DNA from: Candidatus Methylomirabilis limnetica
GTDB lineage: Bacteria > Methylomirabilota > Methylomirabilia > Methylomirabilales > Methylomirabilaceae
Direction of reading: 5' to 3'
Length of the DNA stretch: 32,000 bases
Assembly (NCBI RefSeq): GCF_003044035.1
Contig: NZ_NVQC01000017.1
Location: forward strand, 180,001-212,000
The notes under the pieces were generated by a model that was given only the letters and a program-made list of their open reading frames with translations, searched no databases and had not been told where the DNA came from. Made by a program: the position numbers and the translations under genes. This document shows, one piece after another, positions 8,164-31,869 of the stretch (positions within the stretch are counted from its first letter, which is position 1; the number at the start of each line of letters is the position of its first letter).

Positions 8164-9801
8164 ATGGCCGGCAGCGACGTGCGACGCGTAGGCCCGAGAC
8201 AGTTCGCCACGCTGTGGCGGTCGCAGGCAGTGGGGCTTCAGCCTGCAATCGCCGCCGGGACGGCCCTGATTATCCTTCTGACCGCCTCTCCCTTGGTCAG
8301 TCTCTTGACTTCTGCCTTCACCGGAGGGCCGAAGGCTTTTTCGATCCTCATGAACAGCTCCGTACTTTCGCTGATCGCGCGGACTGTGTTGCTCGCCACC
8401 CTCGCTACGTTGTGGGCTATAATCCTTGGGTTGCCACCCGCCTGGATCCTCACCCGCACGGACATCCCGGGGCGACGTTTTCTCCGGATCGTGGGGGTCC
8501 TGCCGCTGGCGATCCCCCCATACATCGGCGCCTTTACGTACATCACGCTGCTCGGTCCCGTCGGGTGGGTCAATAAGATCTTCCAGGCTATGGGTACCAG
8601 CGGGCCGATCGTGAACATCTATGGCCTGTGGGGCGGGGTCCTGGTGCTCGGCCTGTTTACCTATCCGTACATCCTCCTCATTGTCGGCAGTGCCCTCAAG
8701 GGAAGCGATCCGGCTCTCGAAGAAGCGGCCAGAGCCGCAGGTCTTGGGCCGTTTGGTATCTTCCTTCGGGTCACGTTCCCCCTGCTGCGCCCTAGCCTCC
8801 TGGCCGGAGCGCTGCTGGTCTTTCTCTACGCCCTCTCGGACTTCGGCGCCGTCTCGTTGCTCCGGGTCGACACCTTTACCACCGAGATCTTCCATCAGCT
8901 CAATACCCGCTTCGACCAGCGGAATGCGGCCGCCCTCTCCATTATCCTGGTCATCCTGACGGCCGTGGTCCTGATGGCCCAGCGGAAAAGCTTGGGCCGC
9001 CGCGGTTTCGTCCAGCGGCGAAGCGGTGTCAGACCACCCACCATCTACCCTCTCGGGCGATGGAAGGTGCCGGTCCTTTGCTGTACCTATCTCATCATCG
9101 CCGGCTCAGTCTTTCTGCCGGTTGCGCTACTCCTCTACCAAACCGGCTCACCGATGAGCTTCCTGCGCACGCTCATCGCCGGCCACCGCTATCTTTGGAA
9201 CAGTCTCTGGACGGCGACCGTGGCGGCGACGGCGGCATCGGGACTTGGGCTCTTCGTCGCCTACCTTACCCAGCGCCGAAAGGGGTTGGCGCCGCTCATC
9301 CTCACGTCCGCGACCCAACTCGGGTATGCCATCCCCGGCACAGTCCTTGGGCTGAGCCTGATCCTCCTCTACAATGCGTACCTGCCATGGATCTACGGAA
9401 CCGCCGCCATGGTGATCATCGGCTACCTCCTGCGGTTTCTCCCACAAGCGGTCCAGGGTAGTACGGCCGCGATGATTCAGGTCAATCGGAACCTGGAGGA
9501 GGCGGCCCGTAGCCTTGGCCGGTCCACCTGGCAAGCGCTTCGAGAGGTCACCATCCCCCTCATCCGACCGGGGATTGCAGCAGGATGGATGCTCGTCTTT
9601 ATCTCTTCGATGAAGGAGCTGGCCGCCACGCTCCTCCTCCGCCCGGCCGGGTTCGACACCCTGTCGGTCAGGATATGGATCGCCTCCATTGAGGTTGATT
9701 ACGCCGGGGCTGCGGCGACCTCACTGATTCTCATCGCCATCACCGCGCTCCCCCTCTTCCTCATCAGCCGACTTGACGCCACCGTCTCACAGCTCGATTG
9801 A
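8164..9801 (+). CDS. Fe(III)-type ABC transporter permease, fused two-module (FbpB-like)
   Basis: 545 aa with about 12 hydrophobic segments and two EAA loops (LEEAARAAGLGPFGIFLRVTFPLL and LEEAARSLGRSTWQALREVTIPLI). Confidence 0.88.
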   Translation: MAGSDVRRVGPRQFATLWRSQAVGLQPAIAAGTALIILLTASPLVSLLTSAFTGGPKAFSILMNSSVLSLIARTVLLATLATLWAIILGLPPAWILTRTDIPGRRFLRIVGVLPLAIPPYIGAFTYITLLGPVGWVNKIFQAMGTSGPIVNIYGLWGGVLVLGLFTYPYILLIVGSALKGSDPALEEAARAAGLGPFGIFLRVTFPLLRPSLLAGALLVFLYALSDFGAVSLLRVDTFTTEIFHQLNTRFDQRNAAALSIILVILTAVVLMAQRKSLGRRGFVQRRSGVRPPTIYPLGRWKVPVLCCTYLIIAGSVFLPVALLLYQTGSPMSFLRTLIAGHRYLWNSLWTATVAATAASGLGLFVAYLTQRRKGLAPLILTSATQLGYAIPGTVLGLSLILLYNAYLPWIYGTAAMVIIGYLLRFLPQAVQGSTAAMIQVNRNLEEAARSLGRSTWQALREVTIPLIRPGIAAGWMLVFISSMKELAATLLLRPAGFDTLSVRIWIASIEVDYAGAAATSLILIAITALPLFLISRLDATVSQLD

Positions 9802-10985
9802 GCGCAGCGATGGATAACGGGGCGGGAAAGATGACAGGAGGGATCGTGGCGGCAGGAACGAAGGTCATCCCGCGTGAGACAGCAGTGAATGCCGTGCCGA
9901 TCTCACCACCGCGTCCCATGGTTATCCGGCTCGATCGGGTGAGCAAGCACTATGGGGACGACACGATCCCCGCGGTAGAGGAAATCTCCTTCTCCGTTGA
10001 GCGAGGAGAGATCCTGGTGTTGTTGGGACCGAGCGGCTGCGGAAAGACCACGACGCTACGCCTGATCGCCGGGTTTGAGGCCCCTGATAGCGGGCGGATC
10101 GAGATTGGTAGCCGAACGGTAGCCCACGACACGATCTTGCTGCCACCGGAGCAGCGAGGCGTGGGCATGGTCTTCCAAGACTATGCGCTCTTCCCGCACC
10201 TGACAGTCCTGGAGAACGTCGCATTTGGCCTACGCCGCTATAATGCGGAGCAACAACGGAGCCGAATCGCGGAGGCGTTGGACTTGGTAGGACTCTCAAC
10301 CCTTCAGGGACGGTACCCGTATGAGCTCTCCGGCGGGCAGCAGCAACGGGTTGCTCTGGCGCGTGCGCTGGCCCCCGGCCCGCAGGTCGTCTTGTTGGAT
10401 GAGCCGTTCAGTAACCTGGATGCCGATATGCGGACGCAGATACGGGAAGATGTCCACTCGATCCTCCGCCAAGCCGGGACTACCGCCATTTTCGTGACCC
10501 ATGACCAGGAGGAGGCGTTTGTCATCGCCGATCGTGTTGGGGTACTGAACCATGGGCGCCTGGAGCAGCTCGACCATCCGGAGGCGATCTACCATACGCC
10601 GGTCACCCGTTTTATCGCTCAGTTCGTCGGTTCGGCCGATTTCATCCCCGGCCTCGTCCAAGGCGAGAGAATCACCACGGAGCTGGGCACGTTCCCGAAC
10701 CAGCAGGGGCTTTCGGTAGGGCAGGCGGTGGAGCTGATGATCAGGCCAGACGATATCGACCTGATCCCCGATGAGGCGAGCGAGGCGACCGTGATCACCA
10801 GGCAGTTCCGTGGCCCAGACAACCTCTATTGCGTGCGCCTGCCATCCGGCCAGAAGATTCACAGCAGCCAGGGTTCAACGAAGCTCATCGAGCCGGGGAC
10901 CAGGGTCACCGTAAAAGCCAATCCGACCCATGTGGTCTGTTTCGATGTAACAACTCAGGTGGATAGGCTGAAGGCTGAAGGCTGA
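9798..10985 (+). CDS. ABC transporter ATP-binding protein (FbpC-like); the start is probably downstream (ATG 9810 or 9918); the last 12 codons are supplied by a repeat element
   Basis: Walker A GPSGCGKTT, signature LSGGQQQR, Walker B VVLLDEP, and a TOBE-like C-terminal domain. The track start is a TTG overlapping the permease stop. MVIRLDRVSKHYG (ATG 9918) looks like a typical N-terminus. The C-terminal VTTQVDRLKAEG-stop is encoded by the element starting at 10947. Confidence 0.85.
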   Translation: MSAAMDNGAGKMTGGIVAAGTKVIPRETAVNAVPISPPRPMVIRLDRVSKHYGDDTIPAVEEISFSVERGEILVLLGPSGCGKTTTLRLIAGFEAPDSGRIEIGSRTVAHDTILLPPEQRGVGMVFQDYALFPHLTVLENVAFGLRRYNAEQQRSRIAEALDLVGLSTLQGRYPYELSGGQQQRVALARALAPGPQVVLLDEPFSNLDADMRTQIREDVHSILRQAGTTAIFVTHDQEEAFVIADRVGVLNHGRLEQLDHPEAIYHTPVTRFIAQFVGSADFIPGLVQGERITTELGTFPNQQGLSVGQAVELMIRPDDIDLIPDEASEATVITRQFRGPDNLYCVRLPSGQKIHSSQGSTKLIEPGTRVTVKANPTHVVCFDVTTQVDRLKAEG

Positions 10986-17434: not shown

Positions 17435-17692
17435 ACCGGCCTAGTAGCTCTGTTGTGCGCATGGGTGGTTGGGGTATGGCGCGTTGATACTCCGCCCGCT
17501 GTATGAGATGTGGGGAAAAGGCTGGGAGCACCGATCTCCTCGGTCCTCACGAGCCCTATGCCCATGAGATCCCGACCCCACTAGTCATTCGGGAGGATGT
17601 AAAGTTAGAGTACGGTGAGCGCCGTCCCACCGTTGGATGGGCTACGCTATCGAGATGTCAGGAGAGAGCTATCCGTTGACGGGTTGGCGTGA

Positions 17693-18037
17693 TCACATCA
17701 GGTCCCCGAGCGGCCCGAGCGACAGGTTGAGGTCGTCCTCGGCGAGGCCGAAGTGTGCCCGGAGTTCCACCATCTTCTCCTCCAGCCGGATGAAGGTCAC
17801 CCCCATCCGCTCGATCTCCTCGGAGGTGAGGGAGCCCCCCTCCATCCTTCGAAGGGCCTGACGCTCGAGAAGCTTTCTGAGGAGTTCGATGAGGGTGAGC
17901 ACGAGCTTGGCCAGCCCCTGCTCGACCTTCTCAGGGTCGGCGTTGATCCGTCTCGGCAGGGCCTGGGTGAGCTGCTCCAGCTCCCCCTCAAACTCCGCCA
18001 GAGAGCTCTCAGGCGCCGAGAGTGTCTTTGGTTTCAT
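17693..18037 (-). CDS. gvpK: Gas vesicle protein GvpK
   Basis: RINADPEKVEQGLAKLVLTLIELLRKLLERQALRRMEGGSLTSEEIERMG is the canonical GvpK core. The start was moved to ATG 18037 (MKPKTLSAPE), which gives a 29-nt overlap with the upstream gene. Confidence 0.88.
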   Translation of the reverse strand: MKPKTLSAPESSLAEFEGELEQLTQALPRRINADPEKVEQGLAKLVLTLIELLRKLLERQALRRMEGGSLTSEEIERMGVTFIRLEEKMVELRAHFGLAEDDLNLSLGPLGDLM

Positions 18038-18737
18038 CGTGGGCTCCGTTGACGAAGTGGTAGGGAGGCCAGGGGCCGGTGAGGAGGAAGCTAAGGCGGG
18101 GAAACTCTTCCCGGATCTTTGCCACGCCTTCACGGAAGGCGTCCACTCGATCCCGCTCCACCAGATAGGCCCCGGTGAGAAGCAGCCGCTCTGTGGGGAA
18201 CCGCTGGAGCCGGCTTTCCCCAGCCAGGGAGGGGAAAGAGGCCTGGAGCTCCTGAATCAACCGCTCCCCCGCCGCTCGAAACCTAGCCCGATGCCGCTCC
18301 TCCGTAAGCCTCCTGTGGAGGTATTCCGTTCCAGGGCCTTCATCGCTAGTCTTTTGATCCACCGCCGTGGCGGAGTCACCAGGCGGTTCCCAGAGCACCC
18401 TGAGCCCCAGCTCCACCTTTCCTGTCACCCGCTCCAGCGCAGAGCGGAATGGCCGAGCGCGTTCGTTGAGGAGCGCGATCGCAGCATCCTCAGTTCTGAA
18501 GAGCGTGTTGAAGCGGGCGGGAAGGACAGGGCGGGAGATCATCACCTCCTCTAGCACCGTCTCGTGGAGGGTCAGGTGGTCTTCGTCGACGGGCCATAGG
18601 GTGAGCGGCGACCGGCTGACCACAGCGGCTAGGTCCCCCTGCGGAACAAGGAAGACGGGACGCCTCCCGAGCCCAACGATCTGCTGTAACAGCGGCGGGG
18701 GGAAGGCGACGATCCCGTAAAGGTAGATCCCCTCCAT
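18009..18737 (-). CDS. GvpL/GvpF-family gas vesicle protein (paralog 5)
   Basis: The N-terminus MEGIYLYGIV...VFLVPQGDLAAVVS...LHETVLEEVM...VLPARFNTLF and the C-terminal LTGPWPPYHFV are hallmarks of the GvpL/F family. Confidence 0.85.
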   Translation of the reverse strand: MEGIYLYGIVAFPPPLLQQIVGLGRRPVFLVPQGDLAAVVSRSPLTLWPVDEDHLTLHETVLEEVMISRPVLPARFNTLFRTEDAAIALLNERARPFRSALERVTGKVELGLRVLWEPPGDSATAVDQKTSDEGPGTEYLHRRLTEERHRARFRAAGERLIQELQASFPSLAGESRLQRFPTERLLLTGAYLVERDRVDAFREGVAKIREEFPRLSFLLTGPWPPYHFVNGAHDETKDTLGA

Positions 18738-18740
18738 GGC

Positions 18741-18950
18741 TCACTCCTCGACGCTCTTAACACCCCATTCCCTAGCCGTTTCCACAGAGCAGAGGAGGAG
18801 CCGGAGACCAACATAGATGAGGTCCACATCGGCTACGGATAGGGTCACATCCCCCGCTACCACGACGCCCTTGTTGAGGAGGCGGTCCAGCGTCTCGAGG
18901 AGCGTGACCTGCCGTTCCAGGCTGGAAGCAGGCCGGCCGTTATCCTTCAT
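18741..18950 (-). CDS. GvpA/GvpJ-family small gas vesicle protein (GvpJ/M/S-like)
   Basis: TLLETLDRLLNKGVVVAGDVTLSVADVDLIYVGLRLLLCSVETA is a GvpA-fold core. The start was moved to ATG 18950 (MKDNGRP...). Confidence 0.82.
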   Translation of the reverse strand: MKDNGRPASSLERQVTLLETLDRLLNKGVVVAGDVTLSVADVDLIYVGLRLLLCSVETAREWGVKSVEE

Positions 18951-19743
18951 CGTCAAGCCTCGGGACAAAGTGGTATGGTGGCCAGGGGCCCGAGACAACG
19001 AGCCTGAAGGCTTCTTCGGCATGGCTCTGGTTCCACTGCTCCACCCCGGAGAGGAGGTCCTCCACTCCCTCCCGCCTCACGAGACAGGCCAGATTAAGCA
19101 CGATCCTCTCCCCCTCTCTGGCCTCGGGGAGGATGGAAGGATACTCCACCAGCTCCACCACTTTCCCCCGGAGGGCCTCCAGCGCCTGACTGGCAAGCGC
19201 ATCTTCACGCTCCTGGGATTTCGTCGAGGCGCTCTCCTCGATTTTTCTCTTGAGGAAGAATGCCAGCCCGGGCGGTTTAGTGCTTGCCTCGCGGGCCAAG
19301 GCAAGGAGCGCCGCATCGTTCTTGAGCACGGCGGCTCGAAGGGCCGTCCGGTCCGCGAACCCCTTCACGCCCCACTCGACCTTATCTCTCAGGAACTCCA
19401 GGGCCTCTTGGATGCGCCGAGTATTCCTCCGAATGACCGACCGGATCGTCCCCGCGTCAAGGAAGATAGTGCCAAACCTCATCGGGAGAAGCGGACCCGT
19501 GGCCAGAGCCGACTCCACGATCGACTCGTGAAGGCGCACTTTCTCCTCCAGCCAAGAGGGGTCCTCCAGGTTGCGGCGGAGAGCCTCCTCCCCGAACTCG
19601 GTCAGGGGGACCGGGCTGGACAGTGCCACGATCCCGTTCTCGGCGATGAGGCTCAAAGGAGAGTGCCCGTCGATTCCCATCATTGGCGGCAGGTCTCCGT
19701 GGGGGGAAAAAGCATAGAGGTACCAGCCAATCTCGGAAGGCAT
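18940..19743 (-). CDS. GvpL/GvpF-family gas vesicle protein (paralog 4)
   Basis: WYLYAF...IVALSSPV...LHESIVESA...LLPMRFGTIF...SGPWPPYHFV. ATG 19743 forms an ATGA overlap with the upstream stop. Confidence 0.85.
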   Translation of the reverse strand: MPSEIGWYLYAFSPHGDLPPMMGIDGHSPLSLIAENGIVALSSPVPLTEFGEEALRRNLEDPSWLEEKVRLHESIVESALATGPLLPMRFGTIFLDAGTIRSVIRRNTRRIQEALEFLRDKVEWGVKGFADRTALRAAVLKNDAALLALAREASTKPPGLAFFLKRKIEESASTKSQEREDALASQALEALRGKVVELVEYPSILPEAREGERIVLNLACLVRREGVEDLLSGVEQWNQSHAEEAFRLVVSGPWPPYHFVPRLDDEG

Positions 19744-20357
19744 CAGCGCTCCTTTGCGTCCCACAGTGGGAGCCGATCGATGAGAAACTCCACCTGGATT
19801 CCCTCTGGCAGGAGCCGATCCACTTCGTGCATCATCCCCAGGAAGAGGAGAGCCACTTCACCCTCCTCCAGGGTCTCGGCAATCCGCTGGGCGATGAAGG
19901 TGTCCCGCGCCTTCAGGATCTCCGCGCTCTCAGCAGCGTAGCTCCGCTTGGCCTCTTCCCGCTCGGCGTCTGTCTGGGCCTCGGTGATCTGCTTAACGTG
20001 GGCGTACTCTCGAAGTAAGAGCTCTGGTGACTCGGTCCCAATCAGCTTCGCCCCCTTGTCAACCAGCTCAAGGACGATCTGGTAGTTCTTACTCCCCTGG
20101 GCTGCCACACCCCGCGCAATCTCCAGCTCTTTCCCCGAGACGGGCAGGCCGTCCTGATAGATCCTGACCCGCTCCCACGGGAGATTCCTGATCAGGAGCT
20201 TCGCCCTGATCCCCTCCCAGACATCATCAATGACCCGTCGGCTCCGCTCCCAGCTTTCGACCCCGAATCGTCTGATGGACTCCTGCCGGAGCGCCTCCGA
20301 CTTGGACCCCATATCCGCCATGGTGTGAATGATGGGGACGTAGATGAGCCGCCTCAT
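19743..20357 (-). CDS. Hypothetical protein embedded in the gvp cluster (204 aa from ATG 20357); no family recognised
   Basis: MRRLIYVPIIHTMADMGS...RIYQDGLPVSGKELEIARGVAAQGSKNYQIVLELVDKGAKLIGTES...ALLFLGMMHEV. There is no TM segment. It is tightly packed: 4 nt after the receiver gene stop, and its own stop overlaps the next ATG. Confidence 0.6.
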   Translation of the reverse strand: MRRLIYVPIIHTMADMGSKSEALRQESIRRFGVESWERSRRVIDDVWEGIRAKLLIRNLPWERVRIYQDGLPVSGKELEIARGVAAQGSKNYQIVLELVDKGAKLIGTESPELLLREYAHVKQITEAQTDAEREEAKRSYAAESAEILKARDTFIAQRIAETLEEGEVALLFLGMMHEVDRLLPEGIQVEFLIDRLPLWDAKER

Positions 20358-20361
20358 CGCG

Positions 20362-23829
<3,468 letters not shown>

Positions 23830-23833
<4 letters not shown>

Positions 23834-24345
23834 GCGCTCTTGCCGGCCTTAGCGACAGTGACCTCCAGGATGCCGTTCCGGTAGGAGGTCTTCAGCGATT
23901 CCTGCTTTCCCTTGGCAGGGAGGAGAATCTCTTTGCTGTACTTCCGGTCCTTGCCCTCGGCGGAGATGGTGAGAATGTCATCTTTCAGCTCTACCCGGAC
24001 GTCACCGGTATCCACTCCGGGCATCTCGGCAATCACTCGGATGGCCTCGTTCTCATCGAAGACGTCTACCAGCGGCTCCCGCACCTCCTCGACCACGGCC
24101 CCCGCTTCGCCCTTCTTGATGTTGCCGAAGGTCTCGACGGTGGGTTCGCCCCCCAGGCCGACCTTGACGTTGAAGCCGTACACTCCTCTCAGATCTTTAA
24201 GCCGCCCTTTCCCCCTGAGCTCCCCCGTGCGAGTCGTCTCGGTCTTCCCCTCCGCCTCCATCTCCTTGAGGAGCTCGATGAGGTCGCCAATTCCCTTGAA
24301 GAGGTCGCCGAGGCCGAATCCCGCTCCACCTTTTCGCTCTGTCAT
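23830..24345 (-). CDS. Hsp20/alpha-crystallin family protein (GvpH-like)
   Basis: Alpha-crystallin domain: VDVFDENEAIRVIAEMPGVDTGDVRVELKDDILTISAEG...SKEILLP...SYRNGILEVTV. The start was moved to ATG 24345, with a GGGAGGAAG RBS. Confidence 0.82.
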
Positions 24346-24361
24346 ATCTTCCTCCCATGCC

Positions 24362-24655
24362 TTACCCGCCGAGGCGGGCCTCAAGTCGGTCAAGCCGCTC
24401 CTTGAGTTGATGGTTCTCCTCTTCCAGGACCCTGGCCTTCGAGGAGAGGGCGGGGTCGCTCTGCCACCAGTCGATTCCCATCTCCTTGGCCTTCTCCACC
24501 GAGGCGACCAGGAGCCGGATCTTGATGGTCAACAACTCGACGTCGGCGAGGCAGATCTTGATGTCGCCGGCGATGACGATCCCCTTGTCGAGGACCCGTT
24601 CCAGGATGTCAGCCAGGCTGGTGGTCTGGATGCTGTGGGGGATGTTCTGTGGCAT
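24362..24655 (-). CDS. gvpJ: Gas vesicle protein GvpJ
   Basis: SLADILERVLDKGIVIAGDIKICLADVELLTIKIRLLVASVEKAKEMGIDWW is the canonical GvpJ core, followed by a C-terminal coiled tail. Confidence 0.88.
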   Translation of the reverse strand: MPQNIPHSIQTTSLADILERVLDKGIVIAGDIKICLADVELLTIKIRLLVASVEKAKEMGIDWWQSDPALSSKARVLEEENHQLKERLDRLEARLGG

Positions 24656-24664
24656 GTCGTCCCC

Positions 24665-24859
24665 CTACCGTCCCACTCTGGCCGGCTCGACCCTCGCCCC
24701 GCAGGACGGACAGAACTTGTAGTCATCCTTGTAGATGTACCGCCACGTTCCCCCGCACTCGGGGCATCGCCGTGTTAACGGCTCCCCGCACTTCGTGCAA
24801 TGCTTGAGCGCCCCCCACGTCGTCTCCCCACACCCCGGACACTTGAATGACCCTACCAT
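24665..24859 (-). CDS. Double zinc-ribbon protein (four CxxC pairs), 64 aa
   Basis: MVGSFKCPGCG...HCTKCG...RCPECGG...FCPSCGA. ATG 24859 lies 4 nt after the gvpG stop. The longer track N-terminus overlaps gvpG. Confidence 0.6.
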   Translation of the reverse strand: MVGSFKCPGCGETTWGALKHCTKCGEPLTRRCPECGGTWRYIYKDDYKFCPSCGARVEPARVGR

Positions 24860-24863
24860 AGCG

Positions 24864-25196
24864 TTACACCTCCCCTTCATGCGGGGGCCCACCGCTGCCA
24901 GTCACGGCATCGCCCCCACCGGTCTCCGCAGGGCCTGGCACCGCCTCACCTCCCGCCAACTCCACCTCTTCGTCGGCCTGCCGGACGGCATTGAGCCTCG
25001 CCTCCCATTCCGCTGCTTGCACAGTGTACTCCGCCTCGCCGATCTCGTCCATCTCGTAGAGGAGTTGGAGTTCCAGGAGCTTTTCCTGGATGTACCCCTC
25101 ATCGTTCTGCTCCCGGTCGGCCATCTCGTGGATCTTCTCGAAGACGCCGATGAGGCCCTTGAAGGGGAGCGCGATGAGATCGTCAATGAGGAGCAT
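24864..25196 (-). CDS. gvpG: Gas vesicle protein GvpG
   Basis: MLLIDDLIALPFKGLIGVFEKIHEMA...LLELQLLYEMDEIGEAEY is the canonical GvpG N-terminus. An AGGAGAGG RBS is present. Confidence 0.85.
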   Translation of the reverse strand: MLLIDDLIALPFKGLIGVFEKIHEMADREQNDEGYIQEKLLELQLLYEMDEIGEAEYTVQAAEWEARLNAVRQADEEVELAGGEAVPGPAETGGGDAVTGSGGPPHEGEV

Positions 25197-25207
25197 GAAT
25201 TCCTCTC

Positions 25208-25951
25208 CTAGACCTGAATGACCAGGTTCACGAAGTTGAAGGGGGGGAACCCCCCCACATACTTGAACCTGACCATCTCCCGATACCGCTCAGCCAGCTC
25301 GTCCATTCTCCGATCAAAGGCCGCCTCCTGGTCCCGGTCTATCAGGAAGGCCGCATTCATGATCATCCGCTCCCCCAGGAGCCGATTGGTCAGGCGGAAG
25401 TCGTGACAGGCCCCCTTCAGCGCCTCCACGATCTCCTCCCGGACTCTATCCTTCTCGACCTTAAGGGCCGCCTCCACCATCCTCCCAACCTCGACAAGCT
25501 GCCAGTGGGCCTGCTGGGGAGGCAGTTTGGCGATGGCCTCTTTCCGCCTCCGGATCTCCCCGTATCGCTCGAGAATCTCTTGGTATATGAGCGTTTCGTT
25601 GAAGATCGCCTTCACCCCCACCTCCACCTTTCCGCGCATCCGCTCCAGGAGGCCCCTGAACTCGACATACTCCCGCTCCAGGATGGCCCGCACCCTCGCT
25701 TCGTTCTCGGCAATAGTGCAGAATCGGGCGGGCAGGACAGTATGGCATTTGAAGACGGCCTCAATGGCCCGCTCGTGAACCAGCGAGTTCTCCCGAGAGA
25801 CGGGATAGCGCATGACGGGGGAGTCGCTCACGATGGCTGCAATGTCGCGATACGCGATGGCGGTCAACTCATCATCCCGGCCGCCGATTCCTAAAAGGCC
25901 GAAGCTCTCCTCTCGAGCCTCATCCGTGACGCAATAGATGTACTTTCCCAT
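25208..25951 (-). CDS. GvpL/GvpF-family gas vesicle protein (paralog 3)
   Basis: MGKYIYCV...IAYRDIAAIVS...VHERAIEAVF...VLPARFCTI...YVGGFPPFNFV. The start was moved to ATG 25951. Confidence 0.85.
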   Translation of the reverse strand: MGKYIYCVTDEAREESFGLLGIGGRDDELTAIAYRDIAAIVSDSPVMRYPVSRENSLVHERAIEAVFKCHTVLPARFCTIAENEARVRAILEREYVEFRGLLERMRGKVEVGVKAIFNETLIYQEILERYGEIRRRKEAIAKLPPQQAHWQLVEVGRMVEAALKVEKDRVREEIVEALKGACHDFRLTNRLLGERMIMNAAFLIDRDQEAAFDRRMDELAERYREMVRFKYVGGFPPFNFVNLVIQV

Positions 25952-25970
25952 AGAGGAAATCCCTTCTGAG

Positions 25971-26723
25971 TCACTCGTCAGGGTGGAGGATGATGTTGAC
26001 AAAGTTGTAAGGGGGGACTGGCCCCACGTAGGCGAACTTCACGCGTTCCCGGTATCGAAGGGACAGCCGCTCCATCTGGTCGTCGAACTCCTTCTCCCTG
26101 GCCCGATCCACCAGGAATGCAGCGTTGAGGAACATCCTGTCGCCGACGGTCGCGTTGAGACGGTGCTCCGCAGCCAGACGCCTCAATACCCAGAGGATCT
26201 GCTCTCCCTCCCCCTCCTTCTTCGCCTCCAGGGCGGCCTGGACCATCTTGCCGATGGCGATCCGCTGAGGATGGGTCTGACGGGACGGCTGCCTGGCGAT
26301 CTCCGCCTTCAGATGCTTAATCGCCTCGTTCTCATCCACGATCTCCTGGAAGAGGAGATCCATCTCCCGCCAGAAGGCCTTCACCCCCAGCTCCACCTTC
26401 CCGTCCAGGTCTCGCAGGAGATGTTTCAGTTCCTGGTACCGCCGCTCCAGGAGCTGCCGGATCTCCTCAGCGTTCTGGGCGACAGTGCAGTATCTGACCG
26501 GGAGGACAGTATGCTCGTTCATGACTCGCTCCAGTACCCGCTCATGGGCCAGGAGGTTCGCCTTGCTGACCTCATACTTGCGCAAGGGTGCAGTACTCAT
26601 GACCGCGCTGAGATCCCGGTAGGCGATGGTCTCGACCTCCCGGCCGCCCAGGCCGATGGGGCCGAAGTTCCTTTCCTCGTTGGTCCCGATGATCGCATAC
26701 AGGTACTTCCCCTCCTCACGCAC
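25971..26723 (-). CDS. GvpL/GvpF-family gas vesicle protein (paralog 2)
   Basis: GKYLYAIIG...IAYRDLSAVMS...AHERVLERVM...VLPVRYCTV...YVGPVPPYNFV. GTG start at 26723 with an AGGAG RBS. It overlaps the upstream gene by 8 nt. Confidence 0.85.
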   Translation of the reverse strand: MREEGKYLYAIIGTNEERNFGPIGLGGREVETIAYRDLSAVMSTAPLRKYEVSKANLLAHERVLERVMNEHTVLPVRYCTVAQNAEEIRQLLERRYQELKHLLRDLDGKVELGVKAFWREMDLLFQEIVDENEAIKHLKAEIARQPSRQTHPQRIAIGKMVQAALEAKKEGEGEQILWVLRRLAAEHRLNATVGDRMFLNAAFLVDRAREKEFDDQMERLSLRYRERVKFAYVGPVPPYNFVNIILHPDE

Positions 26724-27768
26724 CGGCGGGCTCCTGAGACAATTGAAAGAGTTTTACTGCCACAGTGTCCAGGACGTCTGGCGCGCGAAAGGATGAGCCC
26801 ACCTGGCTGTATTCCCCCAGAAGCCGGTAGGCCCGCGTCACCGCCTCGAATGCGCCGTTGGCCTTCTGGCCGACCTTGCCCCCATCGGAGATAAGGTCTG
26901 GATGGCACTGCTGGACGAGCCGCCGGTAGGCCTCCTTGGCATCCTGAAGGGTGGCCTGTTCCCCCAGTTCCAAGAGCCGCCGCGCGGAGTCAATCTCCTC
27001 AAACTCGAATGACCTGACCTCAACGGTGGCAAAACTGTATGGGGGAAGTGGCCCCACGCAGCGAAAATCGATGGCGTTGTCGTATCGGTTGTTCAGCCGC
27101 TCCAGAGCCTTGCCGACTTCTCCTTCCCTGTCCCTGTCCACCAAGAAGGCGGTGTTCAGGATCATTCGATCGTCCAGAAGAGCATGAGGGCAGAGGCCGT
27201 GGGCCAAGGGCTTGAGGGCTAGGGCGATCTCAGCGCCCAGGGCCTCCCGTCGCTGATCCAGCCGGACCTTGACCATCTGACCGACTCTGATCCGTTCTTC
27301 CGTGGTCTCCTGCGGGGACCGGTCCGCGATTGCGGCCCTGTTCTGCCTGATCTCCGGCTCTTCGCCGATCTGCCGTAACACCGAAATGAGGTCGCGCCAC
27401 TGGGCCACCAGGTTGAGCTCAATCTTCCCCTCCATAGCCTCCAGGGCGGCCGTAAGCTGGGGGTAGCCTGACTCCAGGATCTTCCGCACCCGGGCCTCAT
27501 CCCGAGCCATAGTCCCGAACTTCACGGGTACCACTGTCTGGCGCTTCATGACCTGCTCGAGGACGACCTGATGGGTGAAGAGGTATGGGATGACCTCCTC
27601 CTTCTTCATGGACTTGTAGGCCCGGATAGGAGTGAGGCTGACGAGAGCTGTCAGACCGCGATGGCAGACGTCTGAGACCTGACGCCCATCGAGGCCGATC
27701 AGGCCGGAGTCTACCTGCACGCCATTCCCGAGAACACAGTAGAGGTGGAGGGCTTCCATAATTATCAT
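26716..27768 (-). CDS. GvpL/GvpF-family protein fused to a C-terminal DnaJ J-domain
   Basis: The N-terminal ~270 aa is GvpL/F-like (LHLYCVL...LTALVS...THQVVLEQVM...VVPVKFGTM...CVGPLPPYSF). The C-terminus is RRLLELGEQATLQDAKEAYRRLVQQCHPDLISDGGKVGQKANGAFEAVTRAYRLLGEY, with J-domain helices I-III and an HPD tripeptide (codons 26896-26904, checked on the sequence as CAT CCA GAC). ATG 27768 forms an ATGA overlap with the upstream stop. Confidence 0.85.
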   Translation of the reverse strand: MIIMEALHLYCVLGNGVQVDSGLIGLDGRQVSDVCHRGLTALVSLTPIRAYKSMKKEEVIPYLFTHQVVLEQVMKRQTVVPVKFGTMARDEARVRKILESGYPQLTAALEAMEGKIELNLVAQWRDLISVLRQIGEEPEIRQNRAAIADRSPQETTEERIRVGQMVKVRLDQRREALGAEIALALKPLAHGLCPHALLDDRMILNTAFLVDRDREGEVGKALERLNNRYDNAIDFRCVGPLPPYSFATVEVRSFEFEEIDSARRLLELGEQATLQDAKEAYRRLVQQCHPDLISDGGKVGQKANGAFEAVTRAYRLLGEYSQVGSSFRAPDVLDTVAVKLFQLSQEPAGA

Positions 27769-28166
27769 CCCTTCGCTTGGACGAGTGCCTGGACAACGCC
27801 CTTGCCGCGGCACGCCAGGCAGGGGAGCTTGCTGTTGGCCTCAATCCCGCTGCCCCGGCACTGGCGGCATTCGGTGAAGGGCTCTTTGACGGGGACGACC
27901 CCTTTGCCCCGACAGACAATGCAAGTAATGTTGGTCTGGGGATTGGCCTCACCCCTTCCACCGCAATAGGCGCAGATGATAGCCGGTGGGTCAACTTCCA
28001 CACTGCCTGCACCCCGGCAGACGGGGCATTGGATCCCCTTCGAGCGGGGGAGGACTCCGGTCCCGCGACAGAAGGCGCAGGAGAAGATCCTCCCCGGGAC
28101 GACCTCTCGCCCCCTCTTTGCGGCCGTCCCCCTCCGCCAGGAGCCCCACTCCATCAGCTTCATCAT
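27765..28166 (-). CDS. Stand-alone DnaJ-type cysteine-rich zinc-finger protein, six CxxCxGxG repeats (paralog B)
   Basis: CAFCRGTG, CPVCRGAG, CAYCGGRG, CIVCRGKG, CRQCRGSG, CLACRGKG. 133 aa, with no J-domain and no substrate-binding C-terminal domain. Confidence 0.8.
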   Translation of the reverse strand: MMKLMEWGSWRRGTAAKRGREVVPGRIFSCAFCRGTGVLPRSKGIQCPVCRGAGSVEVDPPAIICAYCGGRGEANPQTNITCIVCRGKGVVPVKEPFTECRQCRGSGIEANSKLPCLACRGKGVVQALVQAKG

Positions 28167-28195
28167 GATACCCTATCCCCTCCCCAGTGATCTCA

Positions 28196-28516
28196 TCAGT
28201 AGTTCATGGAGAACGTTTTCCACTTCTTCGCGGGGGCGTTCCGCGCTGTTGCCGTTTCCCCTGCATTGCTGGGGCGTTCTGACTGAGCCGGCCGCTCCAG
28301 GTCCTCCATCTGCCGATGGATATCAGAGAGACGCTTCTGGATTCCCTGGCTGCGCTTGGCCAGGAGGGCCGCCTCCTTGTCGAGCCGCCCCTTCTCCACC
28401 CGCAGCATGTAGAGCTCGAGGTAGGTGGACCCCTGCCTCCGGGGTATGGCGCGCTGGCCGGTGGTGTGCAGGCTCCGGATGTCCCGGAGCCCAGTGACGT
28501 CCGTGACCCCTCTCAT
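28196..28516 (-). CDS. Coiled-coil gas-vesicle accessory protein, possibly GvpV-like
   Basis: 106 aa. STYLELYMLRVEKGRLDKEAALLAKRSQGIQKRLSDIHRQMEDLE. The position shortly after gvpN and the coiled-coil character recall GvpV of cyanobacterial and Serratia clusters, but that assignment is from memory only. Confidence 0.4.
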   Translation of the reverse strand: MRGVTDVTGLRDIRSLHTTGQRAIPRRQGSTYLELYMLRVEKGRLDKEAALLAKRSQGIQKRLSDIHRQMEDLERPAQSERPSNAGETATARNAPAKKWKTFSMNY

Positions 28517-28529
28517 GGCTGCCTCCCGA

Positions 28530-28697
28530 TCACCGGGCGCTCTCGCGCGCGGAGAGTAGAAGCTGCTTCTTCTTGCTGGCCCCCACCACCTTCAACTCCA
28601 CCAGTTGGCCGGCCTTGAGCCCCACTTCCAGCCGGATGTTGTTGGGGATGGAGAGCTTCCCATCGGCGTCTACCTTTGCAAAGGCTCGCATCAGCAT
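28530..28697 (-). CDS. AbrB/SpoVT/MazE-fold small protein (55 aa), not in the ORF track
   Basis: My translation is MLMRAFAKVDADGKLSIPNNIRLEVGLKAGQLVELKVVGASKKKQLLLSARESAR. A GGAGG RBS lies 8 nt upstream (28706-28710). It sits 15 nt after the gvpN stop, and its own stop is 13 nt before the next ATG. The pattern AKVDxxGKLxIPxxIRxxxGLKxGxxVEL is the SpoVT-AbrB swapped-hairpin motif. Confidence 0.65.
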   Translation of the reverse strand: MLMRAFAKVDADGKLSIPNNIRLEVGLKAGQLVELKVVGASKKKQLLLSARESAR

Positions 28698-28712
28698 CAG
28701 AGCCACCTCCCC

Positions 28713-29633
28713 TCAGCAGTATTGTTTGACGATCTTCTTCACCAGCTCCCTGACCTTGGCCTGATTGCTCTTGCTCCCCACCCGACTCGTCTCCGAGGCC
28801 AGAATGTCCTGGCAGACCTGCCGGAAGACTCCACTGGACCCCTTGACGTGGCCATTGAGCACCGTGAGGGATCTGGCGATCATGATCGCGCCGCGGACGG
28901 TGGGAGAGAATTCACACGCTCCCGACTCCCGGAGGGCCCGGACGACCTTGACGATCTTCTCCGCCTCCTTCCGGGGGAGACCGGACTTAGCCTGGGTGAT
29001 GGCGGCCTCCGTTTCCTCATCGAAGTGGTCCAAGTCCATGGTGATCATTCGGTCGCGGAGGGCATCCTGGCTCCGGTGGACGCCGGCGTACTCCTCGGGG
29101 TTCGAGGTGAAGATCGCCGTGAAGTTCGGATCGACCCTCAAGTAGGTCTCCTCCCCCCCACGACGGATGGGGAGGTCCAGCATCCGCTCCTGGAGAATGG
29201 CGAGAAAGATGTTGTTGGCCTCGGGCCGGGAGCGGGTGAACTCGTCGTAGATGAGGGTGAAGCCGTACTTGCAGGCAATGGTGAGGCGGTTATCGACCCA
29301 CCGCTTGACCATGTCTTCCTCGACCTTCAGGACCCGGGAAACGAAGCGGTCAATGACCTTCCTCAGGTGATAGCCGTACTCTCCTCCCACCAGGTCCGAG
29401 GTGGTGTACTCTTCGTCGCCGTGGATTAGCACGACAGGACGTTCGAGCTTCGAGGCCACATGGAGGGCCAGGGTGGTCTTGCCCGTGCCGGAGGCCCCCC
29501 GGAAGTGAATCGGGAAGCCCGCCTTGATATAGCCCATGGCCCGTTCGGTGAGGTCTTTGACATGCTTTGTTTCCACAAAATCCGGCAACGGGGCAGGCTC
29601 GATGACCGTGCTGAGTTCCTCTATACCTCTCAT
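28713..29633 (-). CDS. gvpN: Gas vesicle AAA+ ATPase GvpN
   Basis: FVETKHVKDLTERAMGYIKAGFPIHFRGASGTGKTTLALHVA...VLIHGDEEYTTSDLVGG...LIYDEFTRSRPEANN is the canonical GvpN sequence. Confidence 0.9.
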   Translation of the reverse strand: MRGIEELSTVIEPAPLPDFVETKHVKDLTERAMGYIKAGFPIHFRGASGTGKTTLALHVASKLERPVVLIHGDEEYTTSDLVGGEYGYHLRKVIDRFVSRVLKVEEDMVKRWVDNRLTIACKYGFTLIYDEFTRSRPEANNIFLAILQERMLDLPIRRGGEETYLRVDPNFTAIFTSNPEEYAGVHRSQDALRDRMITMDLDHFDEETEAAITQAKSGLPRKEAEKIVKVVRALRESGACEFSPTVRGAIMIARSLTVLNGHVKGSSGVFRQVCQDILASETSRVGSKSNQAKVRELVKKIVKQYC

Positions 29634-29642
29634 GGATACCTC

Positions 29643-29981
29643 CTATACAGGGAGCGCAGGACGGCGGGGGATCGCGCCTCTCCCACGGCAGTGAGTGCAT
29701 GGAAGGCCATTCCCAGCGGTGCGCCCGCTTCCCCGGCAGTCAGGGCACGCTTCTCCGGGTCCCCCGAATCGCACGACTCCCTTTCCCCCGCAGACCTGGC
29801 ACGTGACCCTCATGCCATAGGGCTGGATCCCGCTCCCGCGACAGTAGACGCACATCCCATTGGGCTCCTCGACCATGACCGTACCTTTTCCCCCGCAGAC
29901 CTGGCACCTGGACAGGCGCGAGAGGCAGTTAAAGGGGTCGGACCCCTTCCCCTGGCAGAAGGCGCACCGGATTGCCGTCAT
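29643..29981 (-). CDS. Stand-alone DnaJ-type cysteine-rich zinc-finger protein, six CxxCxGxG repeats (paralog A)
   Basis: CAFCQGKG, CQVCGGKG, CVYCRGSG, CQVCGGKG, CPDCRGSG, CTHCRGRG. 112 aa. The repeat spacing is the same as in the 27765-28166 protein. Confidence 0.8.
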   Translation of the reverse strand: MTAIRCAFCQGKGSDPFNCLSRLSRCQVCGGKGTVMVEEPNGMCVYCRGSGIQPYGMRVTCQVCGGKGVVRFGGPGEACPDCRGSGRTAGNGLPCTHCRGRGAIPRRPALPV

Positions 29982-30543
29982 CTCTTCCCCCGTTTACTCT
30001 CCCGGCGCAGCACCGGGATTGAATGGCTCTGAGGGTGGCCTTGAACTCTTTGACCCTGACGGGGCCACCGTTGGACAGAAGCCCCTGCAAGGCCCGGGTT
30101 AGCTCCTCCTGCTCGCCTTGGAACTCGGCCAGGAGGGTCTTGACTTCCCGCTCCCGCTCTTCACGCCTGGCCGTGATCTCTTCCAGCAGTTCCTTGAGAC
30201 CGCCGACCCGTTGCGCTTCACCCCTGGCCAGGGCTTCCCGCAGGGTGGCGGCCAGTGTCCTCTGTTCATGGAGGTAGTGCTTCATCGTCCCCCTGACCGC
30301 TTCCTCCCGCTCCCGTTGGTGGGCGAGGACCCCCTCCATCATGGCATCGAAGTCCCGCCTCCGGAGGGAGGCGGCCCTGGCTAGGGCCTCCTTGAGCTGG
30401 GCCCGCATCTCTTCTCGCTGGCTTCGAAACGTTCCCAGCATCTCGTGGGTGGACTCGACGATCTGCTCCACCGACGAGACCCTGGCCTCGTAGGAGGCGA
30501 TGACCTCCCGGGCCAGGAGCGCCATCTCCTCCCCCCTTCCCAT
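29929..30543 (-). CDS. Arg/Glu-rich coiled-coil protein (paralog 2); candidate gas-vesicle shell-associated protein; start uncertain (30543 or 30525)
   Basis: MALLAREVIASYEARVSSVEQIVESTHEMLGTFRSQREEMRAQLKEALARAASLRRRDFDAMM..., with repeated R/E heptad-like segments. The 3' end overlaps the next gene by 52 nt. Confidence 0.55.
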   Translation of the reverse strand: MGRGEEMALLAREVIASYEARVSSVEQIVESTHEMLGTFRSQREEMRAQLKEALARAASLRRRDFDAMMEGVLAHQREREEAVRGTMKHYLHEQRTLAATLREALARGEAQRVGGLKELLEEITARREEREREVKTLLAEFQGEQEELTRALQGLLSNGGPVRVKEFKATLRAIQSRCCAGRVNGGRDDGNPVRLLPGEGVRPL

Positions 30544-30586
30544 CGGGCTTACCTGAACGCTTCTCTTTCCTCTCAACTCTTCCCTC

Positions 30587-31201
30587 TCATCTGCCGCCGG
30601 CGCGCTTCCCCGCCATCGTGGCGGTCATATTCCGCCAATGACCAGCCATGGCCTCCTGCTCCCGGCGAAAGCCAGCCAGCATGCCTCCGACCTCCTGGGC
30701 CCGCTGCTCGCTCCCGCGGTAGAAGCGATTCATGAGTTCGGCGGTTTCCCCACTTCTCTCCTCCTGGCGAGCCCGAATACCCTGGTGCATCGCCCGGAAG
30801 TCTCTCAGCCGGGTAGACTCGGAAGTGCTGAGGAATCGCTTGAGGTCCGCTGCCTTCCGCCTGAGGTCGTGGCGAAACTCCTTCAGCTTTGCCGCGGTCT
30901 CATCCCTCAGCGCCGCCACCCTTGCCACTCGTGTGTCGAACGAATTGACGATCTCCTGGGCCAGATCCCGCATATCCTCGGCCAGTGTCATTGTGCCGAC
31001 CCTCCCTTCTTGCGTCATCCCCTCCTGGGGGAAGAAGTGAACCCTTTCAGGAGCTCTCTTTCCTTTTTTCTTCGATCCCATGTTCCCCTCCCAGGGCGTT
31101 AACACGCCCCACGTGTCCTCAGGTTGGACTAGAGGGAGATCCTGGCGAGGCATACTCTCTGCGGTTGTCCGCTCAAGGATGCCCCGGCAGACACCCCTCA
31201 C
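30587..31201 (-). CDS. Arg/Glu-rich coiled-coil protein (paralog 1); the true start is probably ATG 30991 (134 aa)
   Basis: The core MTLAEDMRDLAQEIVNSFDTRVARVAALRDETAAKLKEFRHDLRRKAADLKRFL...RDFRAMHQGIRARQEER aligns by eye with the N-terminus of the 29929-30543 protein. ATG 30991 has a GGGAGGG RBS 8 nt upstream. The track start at 31201 is a GTG, and the stretch from 30992 to 31201 has no convincing coding features. Confidence 0.55.
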   Translation of the reverse strand: MRGVCRGILERTTAESMPRQDLPLVQPEDTWGVLTPWEGNMGSKKKGKRAPERVHFFPQEGMTQEGRVGTMTLAEDMRDLAQEIVNSFDTRVARVAALRDETAAKLKEFRHDLRRKAADLKRFLSTSESTRLRDFRAMHQGIRARQEERSGETAELMNRFYRGSEQRAQEVGGMLAGFRREQEAMAGHWRNMTATMAGKRAGGR

Positions 31202-31217
31202 TGGTTCCAGGCCGACC

Positions 31218-31433
31218 TTACGCCGGTGCCGCCGCTGTAGCGGTCAGGCCGATGGCCTCAGCATACTTCAGGTACGTCTCGACGGAGGCCACCACCACCC
31301 GGGCCTCGATAGCCAGGAGCTCGATCCCAACCAGGGAGACGCGCACCCAGGCATCGATGACCACACCCTTGTCCAGGATCCGATCGATCACCTCAACCAG
31401 ACTTGACGACGCGATTGCCTTCTCCACTGCCAT
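31218..31433 (-). CDS. gvpA: Major gas vesicle structural protein GvpA
   Basis: [63 protein letters not shown] is near-identical in pattern to cyanobacterial GvpA. The ATG is at 31433 with an AAGGAGGTG RBS 7 nt upstream. The track's TTG at 31439 is rejected. Confidence 0.95.
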
Positions 31434-31461
31434 TGTCAATCACCTCCTTTCGGTTTTTCCC

Positions 31462-31494: not shown

Positions 31495-31869
31495 CTATAC
31501 GCCCTCCCTGATGGCACGCTTCAGGAGGGTCGTGACGTGATGGAGTTCAAAGGGCTTGCTGATGAAGCCCTGGAAATCGCCTCTCCTTATCCCCTCCACG
31601 ATTGGCTGATCCTCCTCGTAGTGGTAACCCGAGATCATCAGGATTGGCAGCCGGGGAACAAGCCGCCGGATGACGTGAGAGACCTCGATACCGCTCATGC
31701 CGGGGAGTTTCACGTCGATGATGGCAGCGTCAAACCTCCGCCCTTGCACCTGACGCATCGCATCCTCCCCACGGTAGACGTGGGTAATGTGGACCCCCTC
31801 GTCCTTCAGGCCTATCTGTAGGGCCCAACAAATGTCCTTTTCGTCATCCACGACGAGGACCTCAAGCAT
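31495..31869 (-). CDS. Receiver-only response regulator
   Basis: 124 aa. [30 protein letters not shown] and FISKPF, with no output domain. Its ATG overlaps the end of the upstream kinase gene (ATGCTTGA). Confidence 0.85.

Follow-up and report, generated by a model that had tools for sequence, protein, structure and literature searches.

Stand-alone proteins with DnaJ-like zinc fingers, built from the motif CxxCxGxG, are already known and include Anti-TRAP (AT, RtpA) of Bacillus and the BSD2-type factors of plastids. Here we describe two proteins with such motifs, ZnF1 and ZnF2, which are encoded in a gas-vesicle (gvp) gene cluster on 32,000 nucleotides (nt) of DNA from Candidatus Methylomirabilis limnetica (contig NZ_NVQC01000017.1, positions 180,001 to 212,000; this whole stretch is called the window, and unprefixed coordinates refer to it). 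The cysteine-rich domain of DnaJ (PF00684; structures 1EXK and 2CTT) shares the CxxCxGxG motif with ZnF1 and ZnF2 and provides their best sequence matches in PDB. However, the DnaJ zinc finger is inserted in DnaJ C-terminal domain I, has four motifs and pairs them in an interleaved manner (1+4 and 2+3), whereas the ZnFs are stand-alone, have six motifs and a much more basic core, and are predicted to form their zinc sites from sequentially adjacent motifs. Anti-TRAP is likewise small and stand-alone with DnaJ-type motifs; by contrast with the ZnFs, for which three modules and no comparable helix are predicted, it has about 53 amino acids (aa), one zinc module and a C-terminal helix forming trimers and dodecamers, and it regulates trp genes via TRAP, whereas the ZnFs occur in a gvp rather than a trp/rtpA context. 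BSD2-type plastid factors also carry a DnaJ-type zinc finger without a J-domain, and they are devoted to the assembly of a single large protein structure; they have four motifs and two zinc centres and act in plastids, whereas the ZnFs are bacterial and would serve a different client. Finally, the protein encoded next to ZnF2, a GvpL/F protein with a J-domain (GvpF-J), resembles class C J-domain proteins in joining a domain specific for a client or site (here GvpL/F) to a J-domain with an HPD motif, although in GvpF-J the J-domain is C-terminal.

The question that this locus addresses is how the extremely hydrophobic shell protein GvpA is kept soluble and inserted into the growing gas-vesicle shell. 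The factors that assemble gas vesicles are generally believed to act as chaperones for hydrophobic GvpA. Expressing gas vesicles in E. coli is proteotoxic, and proteotoxicity restricts how far they can serve as genetically encoded acoustic reporters (PMC12848028). In the full-text literature we found no paper linking gas vesicles to DnaJ-type zinc fingers, to J-domain GvpF fusions, or to Hsp70 or Cdc48 encoded within the cluster, and neither a GvpL/F-J fusion nor Gvp is named in the main text of a large J-domain protein survey (bioRxiv 10.1101/2022.02.28.482344). What appears to be new here is the combination of three predicted tandem zinc modules (with two- and four-module variants) and an exclusive gvp context. 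The explicit chaperone set encoded in such clusters (J-domain GvpF, ZnFs, Hsp20, Cdc48-like and Get3/ArsA-like proteins, and Hsp70 in relatives) makes the involvement of chaperones in gas-vesicle assembly directly testable, and the reading that we favor is that the ZnFs may be optional accessory assembly factors for gas vesicles.

Two six-motif zinc-finger genes in a gas-vesicle cluster

The gvp cluster lies on the minus strand, between about 31869 and 17693. Four of its genes are central to the argument:

29643-29981, minus strand: ZnF1, a 112-aa type-1 six-motif zinc-finger protein (open reading frame and Pfam), directly upstream of gvpN
28713-29633, minus strand: GvpN, an AAA+ ATPase (342.6 bits with NCBIfam gas_vesic_GvpN, whose cut-off is 266.8)
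27765-28166, minus strand: ZnF2, a 133-aa type-2 six-motif zinc-finger protein (open reading frame and Pfam)
26716-27768, minus strand: GvpF-J, in which a GvpL/F part (Pfam GvpL_GvpF, 203 bits; matches to GvpF in PDB) is followed at the C terminus by a J-domain (32.1 bits with Pfam DnaJ, whose cut-off is 27.8)

A first-pass annotation of the window had described the two zinc-finger open reading frames (ORFs) as paralogs, each consisting almost entirely of six CxxCxGxG repeats of the DnaJ type, and this description was borne out. In a six-frame scan of the whole 32-kb window, 13 CxxCxGxG motifs were found, 12 of which lie within ZnF1 and ZnF2, against a chance expectation from block shuffles of 0.49 motifs on average and 3 at most. 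The motifs of ZnF1 are CAFCQGKG, CQVCGGKG, CVYCRGSG, CQVCGGKG, CPDCRGSG, and CTHCRGRG (CxxC at C6, C26, C44, C61, C79, and C95, with a DPF insert between motifs 1 and 2); those of ZnF2 are CAFCRGTG, CPVCRGAG, CAYCGGRG, CIVCRGKG, CRQCRGSG, and CLACRGKG (CxxC at C30, C47, C65, C82, C100, and C116, preceded by an N-terminal extension of about 29 aa with a conserved MEW motif). Both proteins score above the cut-off of 32.7 for Pfam DnaJ_CXXCXGXG (PF00684), at 39.0 bits for ZnF1 and 49.2 bits for ZnF2, and they share 41% identity; by sequence comparison, they are paralogs that represent two orthologous types of one previously undescribed family. NCBIfam models for DnaJ itself gave 15-39 bits against cut-offs of 338-585, and the BSD2-type model (PF25436) matched neither ZnF1 nor ZnF2 at E<=0.01 and only one homolog, at E=0.013.

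The first-pass annotation had also placed the two zinc-finger genes on either side of gvpN, which can be refined: ZnF1 is located directly upstream, and ZnF2 is set off from gvpN by two small genes, encoding a 58-aa AbrB-like protein and a 106-aa protein termed p106. The TAG stop of ZnF1 overlaps the GGAGG Shine-Dalgarno sequence of gvpN, and judged by this arrangement ZnF1 is translationally coupled to gvpN. At the other junction, the reported ATGA overlap between the ZnF2 stop and the GvpF-J start (ATG 27768) is present in the sequence (...GGATGATAATTATGG...), and this start was chosen by gene callers on identical public contigs. An alternative GvpF-J start, ATG 27759, lies 9 nt downstream and aligns with the start used in a related locus, L036; in three other related loci (L009, L010, and L041) an ATGA overlap falls exactly at this conserved alternative start. 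The arrangement thus points to tight translational coupling of ZnF2 and GvpF-J with either start, through an ATGA overlap or across a 6-nt gap, and is conserved in relatives.

The J-domain previously assigned to the adjacent GvpL/F protein is equally well supported. It spans approximately 26809-27006, matches solved J-domains in PDB down to E=3e-4, and carries an HPD motif (residues 289-291, codons 26896-26904) that is invariant in 16 aligned relatives. When a metagenome scan was seeded with GvpF-J and the best 80 loci were taken, all 80 carried the J-domain. The GvpF-J fusion is widespread, and the protein is better termed a class-C-like J-domain protein.

Family conservation and gas-vesicle context

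A protein search with ZnF2 against 5.8 billion proteins yielded 107 homologs, all of which come from metagenomes or metagenome-assembled genomes (MAGs) and, where named, are labelled "DnaJ-class molecular chaperone" or "hypothetical". Among 1.84 billion representative proteins, 105 clusters matched a family profile at E<=1e-30, indicating a family that is sizeable, not huge. Six CxxC pairs are found in 92 of the 107 homologs, with nearly fixed spacings of about 17, 18, 17, 18, and 16 residues, and also in 95 of 109 ORFs at the loci described below, and all 12 cysteines as well as 7 motif glycines are invariant in a 68-sequence alignment. Type 1 (ZnF1-like) proteins have almost no N-terminal extension and carry a DPF-bearing insert that widens the spacing between motifs 1 and 2 to about 20, whereas type 2 (ZnF2-like) proteins have an N-terminal extension of about 25-30 residues that begins with the conserved MEW motif. 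Natural variants with four and eight motifs also exist, giving proteins with 2, 3 or 4 repeat units and indicating that the repeat unit is a double motif of about 35 residues. The ZnFs have a basic isoelectric point (pI) and a core with a median net charge of +9.5; GvpA, GvpG, and GvpJ are acidic. In motifs 1-4, the knuckles hold conserved residues of hydrophobic or aromatic character (CAFC, CxVC, CA(Y/F)C).

With 12 invariant cysteines in motifs homologous to zinc-binding ones, the ZnFs are predicted to be zinc-binding proteins. The same residues could in principle make them thiol-disulfide oxidoreductases or isomerases acting on Gvp cysteines, as thiol-disulfide activity has been reported for DnaJ and for some plant DnaJ-like zinc-finger proteins. 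We regard such a role, which CxxC chemistry alone would suggest, as highly improbable, given that GvpA has no cysteine and the GvpJ-like protein has one, that the proteins would act in the cytoplasm of mostly anaerobic lineages, and that the pattern of 12 invariant cysteines is typical of structural Zn(Cys)4 sites. The disulfide-isomerase role was judged unlikely specifically because of the cysteine-free GvpA.

The association of the family with gas-vesicle genes is strict. All six homologs on the longest contigs (6/6) lie inside gvp clusters. A scan of one genome per GTDB species, seeded with a 9-sequence alignment, identified 24 true homologs, all from MAGs or single-cell genomes, and the family extends across about eight phyla; the 24 come from Nitrospirota/Thermodesulfovibrionales, Desulfobacteraceae, Syntrophales, Phycisphaerae/Planctomycetia, Cloacimonadota, Chloroflexota, Acidobacteria, Obscuribacterales, and unclassified Pseudomonadota. 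The three weakest scan matches lie away from gvp genes, and two of these are canonical DnaJ genes, which serve as a negative control. Core gvp genes are present in 29 of 31 non-redundant loci anchored on a ZnF, and the remaining two are contigs of <1.6 kb, so that the co-occurrence with gvp genes beyond this locus, which the first-pass annotation had put forward as a check, was strongly borne out. Every family member on a sufficiently long contig sits in a gvp cluster, and the host clusters, which are rich in chaperone genes, come from uncultured bacteria, most of them anaerobic. We know of neither the ZnF nor the J-domain feature in the well-studied cyanobacterial, haloarchaeal, Bacillus, and Serratia clusters. 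The closest genome match, at 77% identity, is a groundwater Nitrospirae MAG. A protein identical to ZnF2 is encoded, next to the same neighbors, on 14 contigs that stem from several independent sequencing runs.

Gene order in these clusters is also conserved, running from gvpA through coiled-coil genes, a type-1 ZnF, gvpN, an AbrB-like gene, p106, and a type-2 ZnF to Hsp20, ArsA, Cdc48, GvpF-J, gvpF, gvpF, and gvpG; in the window, ZnF2 is followed directly by GvpF-J. Of 47 type-1 ZnF genes, 32 have gvpN directly downstream and 10 have GvpF-J, and type-2 ZnF genes have p106 as their upstream neighbor in 34 of 57 cases and, downstream, a gvpA-family gene (13), Hsp20 (12), a second gvpN paralog (11), or GvpF-J (8). 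For any ZnF, the commonest gene directly downstream is gvpN (43 of 104), compared with GvpF-J in 18 of 104.

We give roughly an even chance to the interpretation that the ZnFs are optional accessory gas-vesicle assembly factors, which would most likely act as ATP-independent holdases or adaptors. Under this interpretation, they would bind the aggregation-prone, acidic, hydrophobic shell proteins of the GvpA family, or another Gvp, and would hand these clients to the ATP-driven machines of the cluster, namely GvpN and the J-domain GvpF with Hsp70; ZnF1 is apparently coupled to the former and ZnF2 to the latter. The interpretation is suggested by the residence of the family exclusively in structural gvp operons and its coupling to gvpN and gvpF-J; by the presence nearby of Hsp20, Cdc48-like, Get3/ArsA-like, J-domain, and sometimes Hsp70 genes; by homology to the client-contacting zinc finger of DnaJ; by the basic ZnF core as opposed to the acidic GvpA, GvpG, and GvpJ; by the conserved hydrophobic or aromatic knuckles of motifs 1-4; and by the general view that assembly factors chaperone GvpA (PMC12848028). 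The analogy to a BSD2-like dedicated assembly chaperone is plausible. If the ZnFs are holdases, they would represent a bacterial counterpart of the plastid BSD2-type assembly factors with a new three-zinc tandem architecture, and they would be candidate helper genes for heterologous gas-vesicle expression.

Facultative distribution, the J-domain, and predicted zinc modules

Several observations weigh against the assembly-factor interpretation. Among 24 GvpF-J-anchored loci for which gvpN and the upstream region were covered, 18 contain at least one ZnF and 6 contain none. The clearest of the ZnF-less loci, L036, aligns collinearly with the window at 79-92% nucleotide identity (window 17681-31456 versus L036:7201-19410); exactly four genes of the window are missing there, namely ZnF1, ZnF2, the AbrB-like gene, and ArsA, and the flanking genes abut. 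The ZnFs are thus facultative, which implies that any role they play is dispensable or conditional. In addition, winged-helix-like domains in long type-2 forms and regulatory genes in the related locus L048, both described below, are compatible with a regulatory role.

The window and L036 constitute a natural near-isogenic pair with and without the ZnF genes. Co-variation of ArsA with the ZnFs was considered as well and was ruled out, as two ZnF-less clusters (L038 and L049) keep ArsA. We conclude that the ZnFs and GvpF-J belong to one chaperone-rich cluster lineage, in which the ZnFs are accessory modules, facultative and independent.

The distribution data bear directly on the proposal of the first-pass annotation that the cluster encodes a split Hsp40. 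In its strict form, the ZnFs would provide the zinc-finger function of DnaJ in trans to the J-domain of GvpF, and the two would make up an obligate two-piece, class-A-type co-chaperone that loads gas-vesicle proteins onto Hsp70. The components of this proposal are real. In addition to the J-domain with its invariant HPD motif, the zinc fingers, and the conserved coupling of ZnF2 to GvpF-J, a full-length DnaK-like Hsp70 is encoded inside the gvp operon of nine related clusters (L012:14985-16766, L106:17118-19001, L023:13228-15012, and also L028, L031, L084, L085, L096, and L097), where gvpF comes first, followed by a long GvpA/M-like gene (340-440 aa), then Hsp70, and then Hsp20. J-domain GvpF is also present in 18 of about 20 adequately covered ZnF-anchored loci, and ZnF, J-domain GvpF, and a dedicated Hsp70 occur together in one operon at eight loci; no Hsp70 was found in the window. 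Because nine related clusters encode an Hsp70 within the operon, a J-domain/Hsp70 step in gas-vesicle assembly is quite credible for this cluster family. The obligate partnership was not supported, however. A quarter of the J-domain GvpF clusters with the relevant regions covered (the 6 of 24 above, including the closest relative, L036) are ZnF-less, and two loci (L005 and L006) have ZnFs but no detectable J-domain; a ZnF is found directly upstream of gvpN more often than of GvpF-J. The one-polypeptide layout of a class A Hsp40 is likewise absent, in that the ZnFs have no J-domain and GvpF-J has no zinc finger, and neither a G/F region nor DnaJ C-terminal client-binding domains were found anywhere in the cluster with Pfam and NCBIfam. 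Together with a predicted zinc topology that is tandem and Anti-TRAP-like, not DnaJ-like, these findings make the split Hsp40 unlikely. J-domain and ZnF are linked at the level of the cluster lineage and only loosely within it.

A broader possibility is that gvp clusters of uncultured anaerobes encode a complete, dedicated proteostasis line for the amyloid-like GvpA shell. It would be composed of sHsp, the Cdc48-like and Get3-like ATPases, a J-domain attached to GvpF as nucleation factor, in some clusters the operon Hsp70, and the ZnFs as a new class with three zinc centers that would supply the client-holding and Hsp70-locking functions of the class-A DnaJ zinc finger in trans. We consider this possible, if unlikely.

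AlphaFold2 models built from family alignments provided further evidence on zinc topology. Both models are confident, with predicted local distance difference test (pLDDT) scores of 91.7 for ZnF1 and 86.5 for ZnF2 and predicted template modelling (pTM) scores of 0.81 and 0.79, respectively, and in ZnF2 the N-terminal ~25 residues alone are uncertain. According to DSSP, both follow one pattern, in which a short strand precedes every odd-numbered motif and a further strand follows every even-numbered one, and neither has a predicted helix. Foldseek searches against PDB returned only DnaJ cysteine-rich domains, BSD2, and Anti-TRAP, as local matches; neither model had a match at E<=0.001 in PDB. 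Anti-TRAP, in which one zinc is held by two adjacent CxxCxGxG motifs at residues 9-36 (PMC2896485), superposes on model segments at 0.5-1.5 Å over 29-35 columns with 26-45% identity. The DnaJ domains (1EXK and 2CTT) fit poorly overall (root-mean-square deviation [RMSD] 14-17 Å, template modelling score <=0.27), and the BSD2 fit is weak (6EKB, 6EKC, and 8ILB; E 0.08-0.4, RMSD 5-6 Å; for 6EKB alone, E 0.08-0.19 and RMSD 5.2-5.6 Å). With six motifs and this poor superposition, the four-motif, two-center V-shaped hairpin of DnaJ is not seen. The Foldseek RMSDs, the DSSP pattern, and the alignment of the Pfam Anti-TRAP model with motifs 5-6 in both ZnF1 and ZnF2 suggest three tandem Anti-TRAP-like Zn(Cys)4 modules of about 35 residues each, paired 1+2, 3+4, and 5+6 and joined by short linkers. 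The three zinc centers predicted in the first-pass annotation are compatible with these models and would be the natural expectation under either a tandem or a DnaJ-like topology.

The resemblance to Anti-TRAP raises the main rival to the assembly-factor interpretation, namely that the ZnFs are regulatory, binding and antagonizing a regulator as Anti-TRAP does or, through the winged-helix extension or together with the AbrB-like neighbor, controlling gvp transcription or translation, perhaps with zinc or redox sensing. Anti-TRAP, itself a regulator, is the best local match in both structure and sequence, and ZnF2 scores above the cut-off of 32 for Pfam Anti-TRAP (PF15777) at 38.1 bits (ZnF1, 28.4 bits), a match that overlaps the related PF00684 match; however, the scores against NCBIfam RtpA (40.9 and 38.4 bits) are far under the cut-off of 65. 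A regulatory role is also consistent with the basic pI of the ZnFs, with the absence of the AbrB/SpoVT-like neighbor, which has a DNA-binding-type fold, together with the ZnFs from L036, and with the gene content of L048, in which a PAS histidine kinase and response regulators (L048:6573-8312, 8407-8808, and 9139-9951) occupy the operon slots held in the window by the AbrB-like gene and ZnF2. Finally, long type-2 forms carry one or two winged-helix-like domains (e.g., the fusion at L012:9515-10633), which resemble SloR/MntR/MarR/TrmB with a profile E-value of 3e-4 and match at the loci only below threshold; ten of the longest family representatives showed extra zinc-finger repeats only, plus a winged-helix domain in one. 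We nevertheless consider a regulatory role rather unlikely, as the ZnF genes lie within a structural operon and are apparently coupled to gvpN and gvpF, the ZnFs of the window have no winged-helix domain, and the occurrence of up to four tandem stand-alone winged-helix genes is unusual for transcription factors and suggests a role in assembly.

These stand-alone genes encode the winged-helix-like domain of about 70 aa and are found in 1-4 tandem copies in many related gvp clusters (L021:6229-7398, L025:13596-14413, L007:7684-8641, L013:10998-12115, and others); the domain is absent from the window. They look more like an assembly-factor family than like transcription factors, and the fusion to a ZnF2-type protein would on that basis represent a Rosetta-stone link within the assembly machinery.

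The repeat architecture also permits a structural role, in which the ZnFs would form rigid basic rods of 35-residue repeats on the acidic outer face of the GvpA ribs, similar to GvpC. The occurrence of 2, 3 or 4 such 35-aa units, the basic core facing an acidic GvpA, and the pTM of about 0.8, which suggests a rigid geometry between modules, are in line with this role. On the other hand, two coiled-coil GvpC-like candidates already follow gvpA, the ZnFs are missing from close relatives with near-identical shell genes, and similarity of the ZnFs to GvpC was not found, which together make a structural role quite improbable.

Remaining genes of the cluster

The other genes of the gvp cluster, in cluster order, are as follows:

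31495-31869, minus strand: stand-alone response regulator, first gene in the cluster order
31218-31439, minus strand: GvpA, major shell protein, pI 4.6, no cysteines (Pfam Gas_vesicle, 60.9 bits, and composition)
30587-31201 and 29929-30576, minus strand: two coiled-coil-like basic proteins downstream of gvpA ("cc" genes conserved in related loci)
28530-28706, minus strand: AbrB/SpoVT/MazE-like small protein, 58 aa (weak AbrB/MazE matches under cut-offs)
28196-28516, minus strand: p106, a 106-aa basic protein of no family, with homologs in most related loci
25971-26723, minus strand: GvpL/F (Pfam)
25208-26002, minus strand: GvpL/F (Pfam)
24864-25196, minus strand: GvpG (Pfam)
24665-24892, minus strand: double zinc ribbon protein, 75 aa (Pfam DZR)
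24362-24655, minus strand: GvpJ-like protein (Pfam)
23830-24393, minus strand: Hsp20 (Pfam)
22877-23833, minus strand: ArsA/Get3-like ATPase (Pfam)
20733-22925, minus strand: Cdc48-like double AAA+ ATPase (Pfam)
20362-20736, minus strand: second stand-alone response regulator, distal part of the cluster
19743-20435, minus strand: 230-aa protein of no family, between the response regulator and the distal gvpL/F
18940-19764, minus strand: GvpL/F, distal part of the cluster
18741-19022, minus strand: GvpA-family protein, distal part of the cluster
18009-18737, minus strand: GvpL/F, distal part of the cluster
17693-18133, minus strand: GvpK, distal part of the cluster

The two coiled-coil-like proteins, of 204 and 215 aa, have no assigned family and are encoded directly downstream of gvpA; they may be GvpC analogs. 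The 3' end of the second of these genes (29929-30576) overlaps the start of ZnF1 by 53 nt. The 230-aa ORF at 19743-20435 had no Pfam match, and p106 had no Pfam or NCBIfam match; p106, which has a conserved C-terminal KKWKTFS(M/V)NY, belongs to the core of nearly all clusters of this type. The gene for the 58-aa AbrB-like protein is conserved after gvpN in many related loci, and the Hsp20, ArsA/Get3-like, and Cdc48-like genes (20733-24393) are conserved across the cluster family. The double zinc ribbon protein encoded after gvpG belongs to a second, unrelated family of zinc proteins, and its position is conserved in many related clusters.

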